Source of the DNA: Eledone cirrhosa
Taxonomy: Eukaryota
Direction of reading: 5' to 3'
DNA length: 64,000 bases
NCBI GenBank assembly: GCA_964016885.1
Contig: OZ024740.1
Coordinates: 420,918,001 to 420,982,000, forward strand
Shown here: positions 29,816-52,344 of the stretch, piece after piece
Position numbering within the stretch: position 1 is the stretch's first letter
Layout: each line of letters opens with the position of its first letter
Program-made: the position numbers and the translations under genes
Notes under the pieces: generated by a model
What the model was told of the DNA's origin: nothing
Databases searched by the model: none
The model's input: only the letters and a program-made list of their open reading frames with translations

Positions 29816-29946
29816 AACAAGGTTCAATGAATACATCAAAGAATGAGTTTTACAATAGATTGGAAGCACTCAACAGAAAAGGTTTTCCAGAGTTATTAAT
29901 ATTAATTCAAAATATTAACAAAATAGATATTCTTGTGATCAATTAT

Positions 29947-30011
29947 ATTTTATTATACATATTTCATAGGTACTGAGTTAACTTCAACAGTACGTCCTCA
30001 TCAAATAAAAT
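29947..30011 (-). ncRNA. Minimal type I hammerhead ribozyme, C3U core variant
   Basis: The minus strand reads attttat-TTGATGA-ggacgtactg...cagtacctat-GAAA-tatgta-TA-ataaaat. Confidence 0.55.
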
Positions 30012-30060
30012 AAGATGAGGCATGACATACCCTGACATAGTAGATGGTTAAGATTCAGTC

Positions 30061-30125
30061 ATTTTATCTGATGAGGACGTACTGTTGAACTTAACTCATT
30101 ACCTCTGAAATATGTATAATAAAAT
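30061..30125 (+). ncRNA. Minimal type I hammerhead ribozyme
   Basis: attttat-CTGATGA-stem II-GAAA-tatgta-TA-ataaaat. Stem I is attttat/ataaaat, stem III is short and near-palindromic, and the predicted cleavage triplet is AUA. Confidence 0.72.
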
Positions 30126-30550
30126 ATAATTGATCACAAGAATATCTATTTTGTTAATATTTTGAATTAATACAGATGTGTATATATTCATTATACATAT
30201 TGCACGATTGTCAAACATTAGAACATTGGATAGAATACTTTGTAGTATTAATTCCAGCTTTCTCTTCTCTGAGTTCAATTCTTGCCGGGGTCATCTTTAC
30301 CTTTTATCCTTTCCATGCTGATAAGTACCAGTCAAGTACTGGAGCTGATTCTTCCTCCATATCTCTTTCTCACATCCTTTCTCTCACTCTCTCTCCTTCA
30401 CTGGAAGAAATCTGCTGTATTCAGACCTAGAGAGGAGATGGGCCCCACCAGGTTTTAAAATACCAATATGGCACCTTATGACTCTCTCAGGAGTTATGGG
30501 TGGATAAATACATACATTACATCATATTTTATTACATATAATAAGGCACA

Positions 30551-30894
30551 TGGAGGCACATGGCTTAGTGGTTAGAGCATTGGCCTTGCAACCGAAAGGT
30601 TGTGAGTTCAATTCTCAGACCGGGTGATGTGTTGTTTCCTTGAGCAAGACACTTTATTTCACATTGCTCCAGTTTCCTCAGCTGTAGAAATGAGATGATA
30701 GGGACTGGGGTCCCTATCATTTCACTGCAAAGTGGTCGTGGAGGTGCCACGGTAAAAAAGCACCCAGCACTCACTGTAAATGAGGTTGGTGTTAGGAAGG
30801 GCATCCAGCTGTAGAAATCAAGCTAGAATCTGTTCCCGTCCCACCCTTGCAAGCAGGGAAAAGTGGACGTAAAATGAAATGATGAAATGATGAT
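30551..30894 (+). mobile_element. Full-length tRNA-derived CORE-like SINE, tail type A
   Basis: A box tggcttagtgg, B box gagttcaattc, CORE-like ccttgagcaagacactttatttcacattgctccag, the ggaagggcatccagc domain and an (atg)n tail. Confidence 0.9.
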
Positions 30895-31146
30895 AATAAA
30901 TATTCCAGAACCTTAGAGATTCCAAACTGAAGGTTTTGATTGGATTTTCATCTATATTACAAACACTTCCATCTTCCAATAGTTATTCAGATTATTGGCA
31001 TCTTTCACTTTTGATGTATTTCTCATCCTGATTTACAGACTAATGCTACAATATTAATATTTTAATATTGTTTGCAAAGTTCTATCTATTAATATTTTAA
31101 TATTGTTTGAAAGTTCTATCTCCTCATGCATTTTTATCTACACACA

Positions 31147-31197
31147 CTCTCTCTCTCTCTCTCTCTCTCTCTCTCTCTCTCTCTCTCTCTCTCTCTC
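31147..31197. repeat. (CT)n microsatellite
   Basis: Pure CT run. Confidence 0.95.
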
Positions 31198-31914
31198 AAG
31201 TTAGACATTACATCTGTGGGTTCTTTAGTTTGTTTTAGACATCATGGTCAAGGCCATACTGCAGCATTGTCTTCATGTATATTTGTAAATGTATTTTAAC
31301 TGGGTTTTTTTCTTTACTACTCTAGTACCCATTTCTGATTTTAGACAGTTTTTAGATGAATTAGAAGTATTAGAGCAAACAGAAGTTCCCCTGAGTGGTC
31401 AGTTTGAAACTCCTCTGTTTTAGCCTGGAAAACTATAATAAACAGGAGGGAGATGAGAACCTAGCCCTGATGGACACCTACTTACCTGCTAAGTTCCACC
31501 CAGAACTTGTTGCAAATCCTTGCTGAACTCATTGCTAACTCTCGTTTTGCTGACAGCATCTCTGTATATTTTTAGTTTTCTTAGCAGTCACCAGATGGCA
31601 GAGTGTAGGTACTTTATCAAAGGCCTTCTCTAGGCTGGCTATTTATTATGGAATACAGAGTGTAGCTACTTTATCAAAGGTTGGTTAGTTATAATGACTT
31701 ACTCTTTACTAATAACATCTTATGTAGCAGTCCCATTAGGAACAGAACATTAGTAATACCCTATATTGGTACAAACCTTAACTGCATCTCATTTGACTAA
31801 ATTTTCTTTCTAATTAGTTGTTTTGTCATTTTTATAACTTGTACCATCAGTTTGATGCCTTCATAGTTGCTTCTTTCCAGAGTATTACCATTACTTATTT
31901 ATCAGTTAATAATA

Positions 31915-32015
31915 ATTGTTTCTACTTTTGGCACAAGGACAGCAATTATCCCAGTGCATTACTGGTACTTTATTTTATTGACCCCCGTAAGGATGAAAGG
32001 CAAATTAACCTTGGT
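31915..32015 (-). mobile_element. SINE 3' half with the gcctttcatcc domain
   Basis: aattgtttctacttttggcacaagg...ctggtactttattttattgacccccgtaaggatgaaaggcaaa. Confidence 0.8.
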
Positions 32016-49679: not shown

Positions 49680-49789
49680 GCTCTGTTCTATACATATAGC
49701 ACTCTTTTTTCCTTTGCTTTTCCTTTGGAATTACCTAATACATAAAACACACACACTCACACACACATATATATATATGTGTGTGTAGG

Positions 49790-50161
49790 AGGTGAGTTTT
49801 ATTGTAGCACAATAAAGCAATGCAAATATCGGATAAGTAGCACTCAACAGTTTATAGGACTGGAGTATAAATAATATAAGATCAAAAGATGTTTAAAAGA
49901 GTTCCATGTATTTTATTATGCACATTTCAAAAACAAATATAATCATATGAAGCTTAAAAAACACTTGTGAGTAATGAAGTGTTAAATCAACATATGTTGA
50001 TTTAACACTTCACTGCTCACAAGTGTTTTTTAAGCTTCATATCATGTCTCCCTATTTTATCTGATGAGAACGCAAATATCATCCCATGATTATATTTGTT
50101 TTTGAAATGTGCATAATAAAATACATGGAACTCTTTTAAACATCTTTTGATCTTATATTAT
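49790..50161. mobile_element. Penelope-like pseudo-LTR nested palindrome
   Basis: Outer arms 49871-49946 and 50086-50161 enclose a spacer-less 98-bp inner palindrome at 49945-50042. A hammerhead motif overlaps the right arm. Confidence 0.75.
50054..50122 (+). ncRNA. Minimal type I hammerhead ribozyme
   Basis: attttat-CTGATGA-gaacgcaaatatcatcccatgattatatttgttttt-GAAA-tgtgca-TA-ataaaat. Stem I is attttat/ataaaat and stem II includes caaatat/atatttg. Confidence 0.72.
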
Positions 50162-50263
50162 ATATATATATATATATATATATATATATATATATATATA
50201 TATATATATATATATATATATACGATATTAAACAAATGGAAACTATATTTATAAAACCATATT

Positions 50264-50329
50264 TATTTCGTTATATATATTTCTGGGATATCATATTAAA
50301 AATATGTTATGCCTTCCTCAGACAAAATA
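50264..50329 (-). ncRNA. Minimal type I hammerhead ribozyme
   Basis: The minus strand reads tattttgt-CTGAGGA-aggcataacatatttttaatatgatatccca-GAAA-tatata-TA-acgaaata, with a palindromic stem III. Confidence 0.65.
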
Positions 50330-51515
50330 CAATACATAAGCTGTTTTATAAATAATTAGTGACATACCTTGTAATAATGCAACTTCCTTTTAAAAAGTTG
50401 ATTTGGTAGTGAAACTGTTATGATAGTTATATAGAAAGAAAACGAAGATGAGAAGAAGAAGGTGAAGAGATGTATGTAAAGAAAAACAACGGAGCGAGAT
50501 AGAGAGACAAGGATAGAGAGAAATACATTGATGGTGAAAAAAAAAACATAGTAGGCTGCTTTTTGACAGATGATCATCGTATATGTGAGAGGTTAAGGGA
50601 AGGGATACAGTTAGATTAGTGTATAGGAGAAAAAGAAAGAAAGATGATATATTTAAAATATATCAAAAATATATTATGTCTCATCCATTTGAATTATCAA
50701 TATTTATGAATTAGGCACTATAATGTAAATATCAGTATTCATGAATGAGACACATATCTATAATGTGTAAAAAAATGACCACATGCTCAGTTTAAAAATT
50801 CTTAGGTCTATAAGCAAAATCTGAGACAAAACTTCAAACATAAGTATATATGCATTCTCGTGAAAAATGAGAAAAGAGAAAGTTATCTCAAATTCAAGTT
50901 GATAAATATAGACGCACATGTGAACCTAAGTGATACGCTGCACTGATTCTTATATTTCATGAAAAACTTCAATGTGTCAGAAAAGAAAAACTTCAATGTG
51001 TTAGAAGAGATTCCACCCTACATACATTTACATACATATATACATATATATAGACACAAAACATATAAGATATACATTAACATCTAAAATAATCATCGAT
51101 CAAGCATAGAGTAGACAACAGATATCAATATTAAAATTAAAAAACGCCAAGAATATCTTCGTCGCTCCACAGAGTATCTAGGGACGCAAGAGAACATAGT
51201 ATGCCACGCATATCGGTCATAGAACCAGAGTCAAAAACAAACAAGACCAAAAATTGCTCACCAAGCCTTATTTATCAGAAATCATTCAAAACTTATTCTA
51301 CAAATGCTCTTATATTTATTATAGAAGTTTATCCAGCTTAACATTTTTTATTTACATACATCTCTTCACCTTCTTCTCATCTTCGTTTTCTTTCTATATA
51401 ACTATCATAACAGTTTCACTACCAAATCAACTTTTTAAAAGGAAGTTGCATTATTACAAGATATGTCGAGGGCGGTGGATTGGCAGTATTGGCGTTGCAT
51501 TATTACAAGATATGT

Positions 51516-51709
51516 AGAGGGCGGTGGATTGGCAGTATTGGTAGAGGGTCGGACGCTATGCTTTCCAGCATAGTTACGTCCCTTTACGATCTGAGTTCAA
51601 ATCCCGCCGAGGTTGACTTTGCCTTTCATCCTTACGGGGGTCGATAAAATAAAGTACCAGTAATGAACTGGGTAATTGCTGGCCTTGTGCCTAAAGTAGA
51701 AACAATTAT
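51516..51709 (+). mobile_element. Full-length tRNA-derived SINE with a 17-bp target-site duplication
   Basis: A-box-like tggcagtattgg, B box gagttcaaatccc and domain gttgactttgcctttcatccttacgggggtcgataaaataaagtaccag (Meta-domain-like from memory). The duplication attattacaagatatgt is at 51499-51515 and 51705-51721. Confidence 0.92.
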
Positions 51710-51753
51710 TACAAGATATGTCACTAATTATTTATAAAACAGCTTATGTATTG

Positions 51754-51819
51754 TATTTTGTCTGAGGAAGGCATAACATATTTTTAATATGATATCCCAG
51801 AAATAGATATAACGAAATA
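51754..51819 (+). ncRNA. Minimal type I hammerhead ribozyme
   Basis: tattttgt-CTGAGGA-stem II-GAAA-tagata-TA-acgaaata, the inverted twin of 50264-50329. Confidence 0.6.
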
Positions 51820-52344
51820 AATATGGTTTTATAAATATAGTTTCCATTTGTTTAATATCGTAAACCTACTCCAGAAACTGTCGAGTGCTTTTATATCAGT
51901 TATAAAATATTTACTCGTTGTAACCCAACACTCTTAAATAAAACTTTTGCATATATATATATATATATATATATATATATATATATATATATTATATATA
52001 TATATGTCAATGTGTCCATGCCCTGTGTTTTCTGATTTGTTTAGACAGTCTGTGTAGCTGCTAGATAAGAAATGGCTACCTTCTAGTTCAAGCTTTCCCT
52101 TTTCCTTTTATTTTTTAAATGAGAGTGACTCAATGCATGTATCTGATTCTGAGAGAGAGAGAGAGAGAGGTTTGACTCCTGTATTTGACTAATACCTTGA
52201 TGACATTACAAGGACGAAAACTGAGTTGACCTTGGTAGTGGGGTTTGAAGTAAACTAGGGACATGTGCAGATTTGGAGAAAGGATATAGTGAAAATCAAC
52301 CAATCCAGTACTTGACAATTATATACCTGCATGTGAATGTATGT

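Follow-up and report, generated by a model that had tools for sequence, protein, structure and literature searches.

Among endonuclease-positive Penelope-like elements (PLEs), the Hydra clade is described by Craig et al., 2021 (PMC8557442) with a C-terminal GIY-YIG endonuclease (EN), RW(R/K/T) and DKT motifs, a CxCX5C linker, CxxC and CxH motifs, a hammerhead in the pseudo-long terminal repeat (pLTR), (TA)n targets and inverted, 5′-truncated copies. These traits are shared by the elements studied here, three of which, named A, B and C, lie in the window, a 64,000-nt stretch of the Eledone cirrhosa genome (contig OZ024740.1, positions 420,918,001 to 420,982,000). The Hydra section of that paper mentions no hairpin pair or helix P of the kind reported below, and its tails are given as 30–40 nt, as against ~50–95 nt here (PMC8557442). 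In the Poseidon element PAc, reverse transcription starts internally at two sites that are its genomic ends; both strands of AT-rich targets are nicked and extended, RNA lying 3′ of these sites is required whereas hammerhead cleavage is not, and the protein is predicted to dimerize (Frangieh et al., 2024; PMC11167929). As far as its relevant parts go, that report does not name the RNA signal, and the binding motif is only bracketed to the first 172 nt (PMC11167929). Here we describe a conserved bulged RNA hairpin that sits twice per full-length Hydra-clade element, each copy a few bases past one end of the element, where, judging from sequence, it likely positions the reverse transcriptase (RT) to start.

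In L1 twin priming, a staggered cut supplies two primers and the insertion comes out inverted and 5′-truncated; the second of these primers anneals internally at a random position, and its two parts have no stretch in common. Unlike this, an RNA structure would fix both sites in the elements studied here, and both arms copy the same stretch. In hepadnavirus epsilon, the telomerase template boundary element and the R2 3′ untranslated region (UTR), a structured RNA beside the template fixes the RT site. The best structural matches of an AlphaFold model of one Hydra relative (predicted local distance difference test score, pLDDT, 91.6) are telomerase RTs. Unlike those three RNAs, the Hydra module is duplicated, lies 3′ of its start site and is outside the copied region; no sequence or Rfam relationship to the three RNAs was found.

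A preliminary description of the window had placed a 12-mer downstream of hammerheads at three positions, and all three were recovered: the window holds four matches at ≤1 mismatch, compared with a shuffled mean of 0.23, and 0/100 shuffles reached four. The fourth match (59657, 1 mismatch) has no hairpin partner or tail by eye, and the hairpin scan also misses it. Five type I hammerhead-like cores with a 7–8 bp stem I, at 30068 (+), 30004 (−), 50061 (+), 50321 (−) and 51762 (+) in the window scan, flank the 12-mers, and each element is an inverted repeat consisting of a tailed and a short-ended arm. The parts are as follows, where hairpin 1 is the structure that contains the 12-mer and helix P is the duplex formed by the strands that follow the two hairpins.

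29865-29876 (−), 49839-49850 (−) and 51878-51889 (+): the 12-mer CTGTYGAGTGCT in elements A, B and C, respectively
29805..30061, minus strand: tailed (long-ended) arm of element A, Hydra-clade PLE family A
29865..29893, minus strand: hairpin 1 of element A, including the 12-mer
29851..29862, minus strand: 5′ strand of helix P of element A, based on the cognate 12-bp duplex of family A in locus L248
29946..30012, minus strand: minimal type I hammerhead-like motif of element A, core variant UUGAUGA
30059..30172, plus strand: short-ended arm of element A, ending ~6 nt ahead of the expected hairpin 1 start
30061-30125, plus strand: hammerhead-like motif of the short-ended arm of element A
49786..49993, minus strand: tailed arm of element B (family B), with a 45-nt deletion and the hammerhead core lost
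49839..49866, minus strand: hairpin 1 of element B, including the 12-mer
about 49826-49834, minus strand: 5′ strand of helix P of element B
49994..50161, plus strand: short-ended arm of element B, with a palindromic centre at its start, ending ~4 nt ahead of hairpin 1
50053-50123, plus strand: hammerhead-like motif of the short-ended arm of element B
50221..51346, minus strand: short-ended arm of element C, 1.1 kb of family C 3′ UTR and pLTR
50264-50329, minus strand: hammerhead-like motif of the short-ended arm of element C
51344..51950, plus strand: tailed arm of element C, with an insert like a short interspersed nuclear element (SINE) at about 51467-51709
51754-51819, plus strand: hammerhead-like motif of the tailed arm of element C
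51868..51889, plus strand: hairpin 1 of element C, including the 12-mer
51896-51905, plus strand: 5′ strand of helix P of element C

The ends of the tailed arm of element A are approximate by 1–3 nt because of TA microhomology, and this copy is without the partner strand of helix P, which sits after hairpin 2; the junction and open reading frame (ORF) motifs of family A were found in loci L248, L294 and L296. The short-ended arm of element C ends ~5 nt ahead of hairpin 1 and matches the full-length family C copy L188 at 87%. The elements had been taken as otherwise unalike, which does not hold: in global alignments, pLTR plus tail of families A, B and C (locus L022 used in place of family B) gave 119–132 identities over ~200 nt, more than all 200 shuffles per pair. 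Elements A, B and C are 5′-truncated head-to-head insertions of related Hydra-clade PLE families, as the reading of them as inverted PLE pLTR insertions with a tail on one arm had supposed. The reported distances were closely reproduced, with the motif 69, 58 and 58 nt (claimed 70, 60 and 59) after the 3′ strand of stem I and the short arms ending ~23, 20 and 15 nt (claimed 24, 21 and 16) ahead of it. One arm per element carries the motif as claimed, though not always the longer one, as the motif arm of element C is shorter overall and longer only at its outer end; likewise, hammerheads are present in each element, but the motif arm of element B lost its CUGAUGA core within the 45-nt deletion.

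The 12-mer forms the 3′ strand of a hairpin with a bulge, RCUC-Y...R-UN-GAGY-RCU, in which RCUC-Y upstream of the 12-mer pairs with G-UN-GAGY across a loop of varying length. Scanning of the 3.0-Gb genome yielded 11,373 exact matches to the 12-mer, compared with 133 for its reversed control, so that the expected enrichment was confirmed. Among the first 70 matches, a hammerhead core was present ≤200 nt upstream in 45, an RCUC-type partner ≤16 nt upstream in 56, and a TA or CAT run 46–73 nt downstream in 63; the general hairpin pattern matched 123,034 times (control, 816), and it also serves annotation as a marker of element ends. Base pairing was then compared among 76 distinct units (45 from metagenome loci), selected on RCUC and GAGYRCU only, with shuffles that take no account of relatedness among units. 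With a 2-nt bulge, pair 5 was paired in 76/76 units (C-G 54, U-A 16, U-G 4, G-C 2; shuffled 60.8), pair 6 in 56/72 (shuffled 34.6) and pair 7 in 39/51 (shuffled 23.2), whereas with a bulge of 0, 1 or 3 nt the pairing was at chance values. Pair 1 was G-C in 59, A-U in 14, G-U in 1 and A-C in 2 units, and the first bulge base was U in 76/76; the near-invariant bases are RCUC, the bulged U and GAGYRCU-N-U. As judged from these alignments, the hairpin pairs covary. The proposal of a cis signal is retained in that the hairpin is best read as a signal for the element's own protein, but the signal is a bulged hairpin present twice and not a linear 12-mer. Three other readings of the motif were rejected: a protein-coding origin, as loop lengths vary out of frame and the ORF begins after hairpin 2; a splice site in ACTCCAG, as TGG, CGG and CAA also occur there; and self-complementary pairing of AGYRCU, which fits AGUGCU and AGCGCU, not the commoner AGCACU.

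At full-length tandem junctions, a second hairpin was found after the end of the tail and ahead of the AUG, and a second copy is present at the long end in families A–F. The pattern of this second copy matched 1,505 times in the genome and 4 times in the control, and its loci (the first 30 plus 20 chosen for loop variety) mostly lie after a tail and ahead of a Hydra-type ORF start; some (e.g. L232, L236, L298 and L300) are without a clear hairpin 1 or ORF. For family F, the commonest hairpin variant among the general-pattern matches listed, the second hairpin at the long end was predicted and then found (509 matches, some overlapping, vs 0). The order of the unit is pLTR (with hammerhead), A/U-rich site 1, hairpin 1, RCU, strand a, inner hairpin, A/U-rich site 2, hairpin 2, RCU, strand a′ and AUG. 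Element ends in the genome coincide with site 1 or site 2, next to (TA)n. Within each family, strand a (taken as the 24 nt that follow hairpin 1) is complementary to strand a′ (the 24 nt that follow hairpin 2): in 20 families (1 near-duplicate of 21 removed), the mean energy of this helix P was −11.5 kcal/mol for cognate and −5.9 kcal/mol for other-family pairs, the cognate pair ranked first in 12/20, and 0/100,000 permutations were as low.

The positions of the ends were evaluated in relation to the hairpins. Almost every end in the 20 family C loci anchored on an ORF took one of two positions, with (TA)n adjoining in both cases. In a motif-blind sample (88 of the first 100 hammerhead matches), 69 arms were mapped, 44 short and 25 long. 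Short ends lay at a median of 6 nt upstream of hairpin 1 (10th–90th percentile 3.5–8.4), with an interquartile range of 2.5 nt when measured from the hairpin 5′ base versus 5.1 nt from the 12-mer or from the hammerhead. Long ends lay ~7–9 nt upstream of hairpin 2 (a reference was available for 17; −9 falls within the interval in 13 of them and −7 in 12), and end positions were alike in families D, F and G. For metagenome contigs with both ends, 6/12 comparisons diverged 2–4 nt ahead of a hairpin (one at a contig end), 4/12 stopped earlier at substitutions and 2/12 ran on as tandem copies. The narrow peak of arm ends that had been foreseen is thus found in the short-end distances; the 5′ base of hairpin 1 fixes the short end better than the 12-mer or the hammerhead, and the signal does not depend on a hammerhead, which family F lacks.

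These end positions bear on two alternatives in which RT is not positioned by the hairpins. First, the hairpins might direct RNA cleavage just 5′ of themselves, by self-cleavage or by a nuclease, after which two RNA 3′ ends would be copied by ordinary target-primed reverse transcription. The near-invariant RCUC, bulged U (76/76) and GAGYRCU-N-U do resemble a catalytic or protein-bound core, and family F proliferates without a hammerhead core; the ends, however, scatter a few bases inside a target-matching A/U tract, cleavage alone would not yield one long and one short end in 43/47 insertions (see below), and two junction regions gave no Rfam match (0 at E up to 1 with covariance models, a weak blank because the hammerheads there were missed too). 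We consider this quite improbable. Second, the structure might be a 5′ UTR control element for translation, autoregulation or packaging, with ends that adjoin it through A/U-rich tracts only. This would agree with the placement of hairpin 2, which ends 12–39 nt upstream of the AUG in two-core elements, and of strand a′, which adjoins the start codon, but the ends are strictly two-valued across families with different flanks while nearby TA tracts are unused, and the end offset follows the hairpin 5′ base while loop length changes. As the sole explanation it is very improbable, although a 5′ UTR control role is compatible with RT positioning and the two can coexist.

The two end types are also paired within insertions. 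From 48 inverted pairs, 1 was removed as an internal junction, and 43 of the remaining 47 had one long and one short end (expected 23.5, p 1.4e-9); the same was found in 13/14 pairs of family F, with some ends counted twice. Ownership of the unpaired middle was looked at in 41 pairs, of which 17 short pairs were uninformative because self-alignment spans the centre and 1 was unclear; in the 23 informative pairs, the middle belonged to the short-ended arm in 13, including window element C, and to the tailed arm in 10. A middle owned by the short-ended arm means that the tailed arm cannot have arisen from it by fold-back copying, and two separate reverse transcription events are then needed. This bears on the possibility that a single cDNA (complementary DNA), begun at the long end, bends back on its own 3′ end and is then copied as far as hairpin 1, where copying stops; this was also the sense in which the motif had been suggested to set where the inversion ends. 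Palindromic centres such as that of element B would fit such folding, and junction palindromes are taken as self-priming in PMC3846280, but in the 13/23 pairs there is no template for the tail. Fold-back is largely refuted for long insertions by this ownership, and overall we judge it highly improbable.

Hydra-type PLEs with the hairpin pair, as recognized by sequence pattern, occur across marine animals, including coral and sea-cucumber consensi. Among 76 metagenome loci, 32 match from the protein start, and ≤140 nt ahead of this start two GAGYRCU cores were found in 15/32 and one core in 8/32 (control windows, 28/1,051); several one-core elements show a degenerate second core by eye. In the published Hydra consensi, which themselves contain the hairpins, the hairpin is clear by eye in Hydra-2_Amil and Hydra-2_Ajap, occurs twice ahead of the AUG in Hydra-1_Ajap, and is degenerate in Hydra-1_Crog, Hydra-1_Obim and Hydra-1_Amil (File S7 of PMC8557442). 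Searches with 9-mers through the whole supplement of that paper gave 6 matches, of which 4 are these Hydra ends. That the motif is a functionless remnant of shared ancestry, an explanation raised at the outset, is right in so far as the three window families are homologous and form one group in the tree, but conservation and covariation across distant hosts exceed simple descent. Two copies of the hairpin persist, with compensatory changes, among elements sharing 43–57% protein identity with the query, and it recurs in the published consensi of four phyla; loops, helix P and spacing, by contrast, are free to vary. A mere remnant is hardly credible, being refuted by metagenome breadth and covariation unless the sets are far less independent than protein distances suggest.

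Collectively, RT positioning by the two hairpins could proceed as follows. In the sense RNA, pairing of a with a′ would set the two hairpin modules, equivalent to each other, in pseudo-two-fold symmetry, and a protein dimer would bind them with one subunit per module. The endonuclease would nick both strands of the (TA)n target, each nicked 3′ end would prime cDNA from the A/U-rich site directly 5′ of its hairpin, and the two cDNAs, independently 5′-truncated, would join head to head. Site 2 would give the arm with a tail of ~50–95 nt containing hairpin 1, site 1 would give the arm without a tail, and hairpin 2 would never be copied; this would account for insertions with one long and one short arm. 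The wider claim is that Hydra-clade PLEs carry an RNA domain, present throughout the clade and so far undescribed, in which one helix clamps two bulged hairpin modules with pseudo-two-fold symmetry; it would load an RT subunit onto each of the two fixed start sites, and a single cut would be primed from both strands (programmed twin priming). This claim seems to us evenly balanced between true and false. If true, both the PLE tail and the inverted pLTRs would stem from such priming, and the domain would provide a portable signal for the internal start of reverse transcription on RNA by a telomerase-related RT.

Several observations weigh against this mechanism. The stretch of RNA that is copied twice needs strand displacement or two RNAs. 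The basal pairs of the hairpin have a predicted probability of 0.00–0.17 in 4/29 values; 9/32 metagenome 5′ regions are without any core; 19/88 arms of the motif-blind sample were unmappable; and 4/47 inverted pairs break the rule of one long and one short end, 2 being two-long and 2 two-short (L177 seems misassigned). Furthermore, a Neptune family of the same genome that is without the motif has one long and one short end in 15/16 pairs (some ends counted twice), so that the asymmetry is general to PLEs and is, alone, no pointer to the hairpins; the hairpin pair would therefore be the Hydra version of the signal. Folding energy does not tell the strands apart either (sense −11.5, antisense −12.1, p 0.32). 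This last result, together with the near-palindromic form of GAGYRCU(C) as DNA, would also suit hairpins that form in single-stranded cDNA or DNA and serve as the recognition signal of the GIY-YIG endonuclease, by which a transposition intermediate would be trimmed at a fixed distance from each. Supportively, the tail has been ascribed to EN-mediated resolution (PMC8557442), and recognition by the D. virilis EN was reported to depend on the tail (PMC11167929). However, RT starts, not cuts, were mapped to both PAc genomic ends (PMC11167929), the hairpin stems hold more G-U than A-C pairs (about 16 to 7), and the targets are plain (TA)n; we regard a DNA signal as unlikely.

As in PAc (PMC11167929), two genomic end positions bound the tail. 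PAc belongs to another clade, its start lies in an AC-rich stem-loop inside the ORF, and neither a duplicated conserved motif nor cross-family covariation is reported in the parts of that paper considered here (PMC11167929); in the Hydra elements the sites are in the 5′ UTR and the template shares TA microhomology with the target. Already known are the class of element, its tail and the existence of two internal start sites, whereas an RNA domain that is duplicated, covaries and lies at either end of elements throughout the Hydra clade appears to be undescribed: the open literature, searched without subscription papers, Repbase and Dfam notes, gave no account of the hairpin pair or of helix P. 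For some two decades it has been an open question how PLEs come by their tail and inverted pLTRs, and the one in vitro study identified two internal start sites but not the RNA signal (PMC11167929). A defined covarying RNA element and intact young ORFs make this question directly testable and may serve for comparison where RNA recognition by the nearest relatives of telomerase RT is concerned.

Assignment to the Hydra clade is based on the proteins and pLTRs. A single ORF encoding RT plus, at the C terminus, a GIY-YIG endonuclease was found in families A, C, D and F, while the DNA examined for family B includes only the N-terminal half plus RT, with RWT, DKT and the RT motif present. RWR, RWT or RWK together with DKT (in place of DKG) occur in families A, B, C, D and F, and the CxCX5C linker with CxxC and CxH around E and N in families A, C and F; no CCHH was seen in family C by eye. 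Canonical hammerheads are present in the pLTRs of window families A, B and C, and their core pattern matched 67,788 times in the genome (control, 18). With CUGANGA and GAAA cores, stem I and a minimal stem III, the window motifs fit the minimal type I ribozyme by sequence; the Rfam scan of the window listed only TA-repeat microRNA noise among the matches listed (150 of 246). Insertion into (TA)n, another trait of the clade, was found here, and the clade's size of generally under 3 kb, which is a typical trait and not strict, is exceeded by units of 3.5 kb (family F) or more, with family C measuring ~3.7 kb from hammerhead to hammerhead. Three Hydra proteins gave no Pfam match; the nearest named proteins are from Argonauta hians. 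In a quick tree, which took in no published Hydra reference proteins, 7 own-genome and 26 metagenome proteins stood apart from 3 Neptune/other outgroups (Shimodaira–Hasegawa-like approximate likelihood ratio test, SH-aLRT, 100).

Family F (L387-L407) has an intact ORF of ~717 aa from the first Met and a tandem unit of 3,542 bp, in which no CUGANGA-GAAA core was found, so that the hairpin pair does not require a hammerhead. Family F also leaves very many fold-back remnants of ~200 bp. Family G (L303; also L226, L228, L245, L295 and L310) has a hammerhead and both hairpins in ~1.3-kb tandem units with no Hydra ORF motifs found downstream, and is a candidate non-autonomous, retrozyme-like derivative borrowing the signal. 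Further PLE-like ORFs of the genome, with a Poseidon-like EN, are at L047:1130-2116 (−), L058:9080-9973 (+) and L110.

A young Neptune-like PLE family (L071-L120, e.g. L101 minus strand and L102:2902-5253) has a 784-aa frame in copies ~98% identical, no canonical hammerhead in its 1.2-kb 3′ UTR, and two ends 35 nt apart. One motif match lies beside this family, and a Neptune origin of the motif was rejected, given its 35-nt tail and the lack of the motif at its own ends in 30 loci. Beyond each of its two ends lies a short hairpin of like form (UAAC..GUUA-CA or UAUC..GAUA-CA), and the two may be an analogous signal in duplicate.

Other observations concern the surroundings of the window elements. 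A conserved GGTATGTC, like a 5′ splice site, lies ~20–40 nt upstream of the hammerhead core in many Hydra families, for example at window 30020-30035 (−) and at L188 about 5025-5015 (−). The SINE-like repeat at 51467-51709, inserted in the tailed arm of element C, is abundant and has an internal duplication, with similar copies near 28780, 29124, 17546, 31910 and 5658. Two tandem arrays are present, one at 49290-49600 (region 49280-49600) with a ~59-bp unit on a palindrome around CTGATGA/CTGATCA and one at 48500-48960 with a ~60-bp unit. As a lead only, a target-site duplication of ~14 nt was seen at the 3 informative non-pure TA flanks among 79 pairs (window 29790-29804 and 30171-30184; L047; L207), such duplications being mostly hidden because of the (TA)n targets, and its length suggests the stagger between the two nicks.

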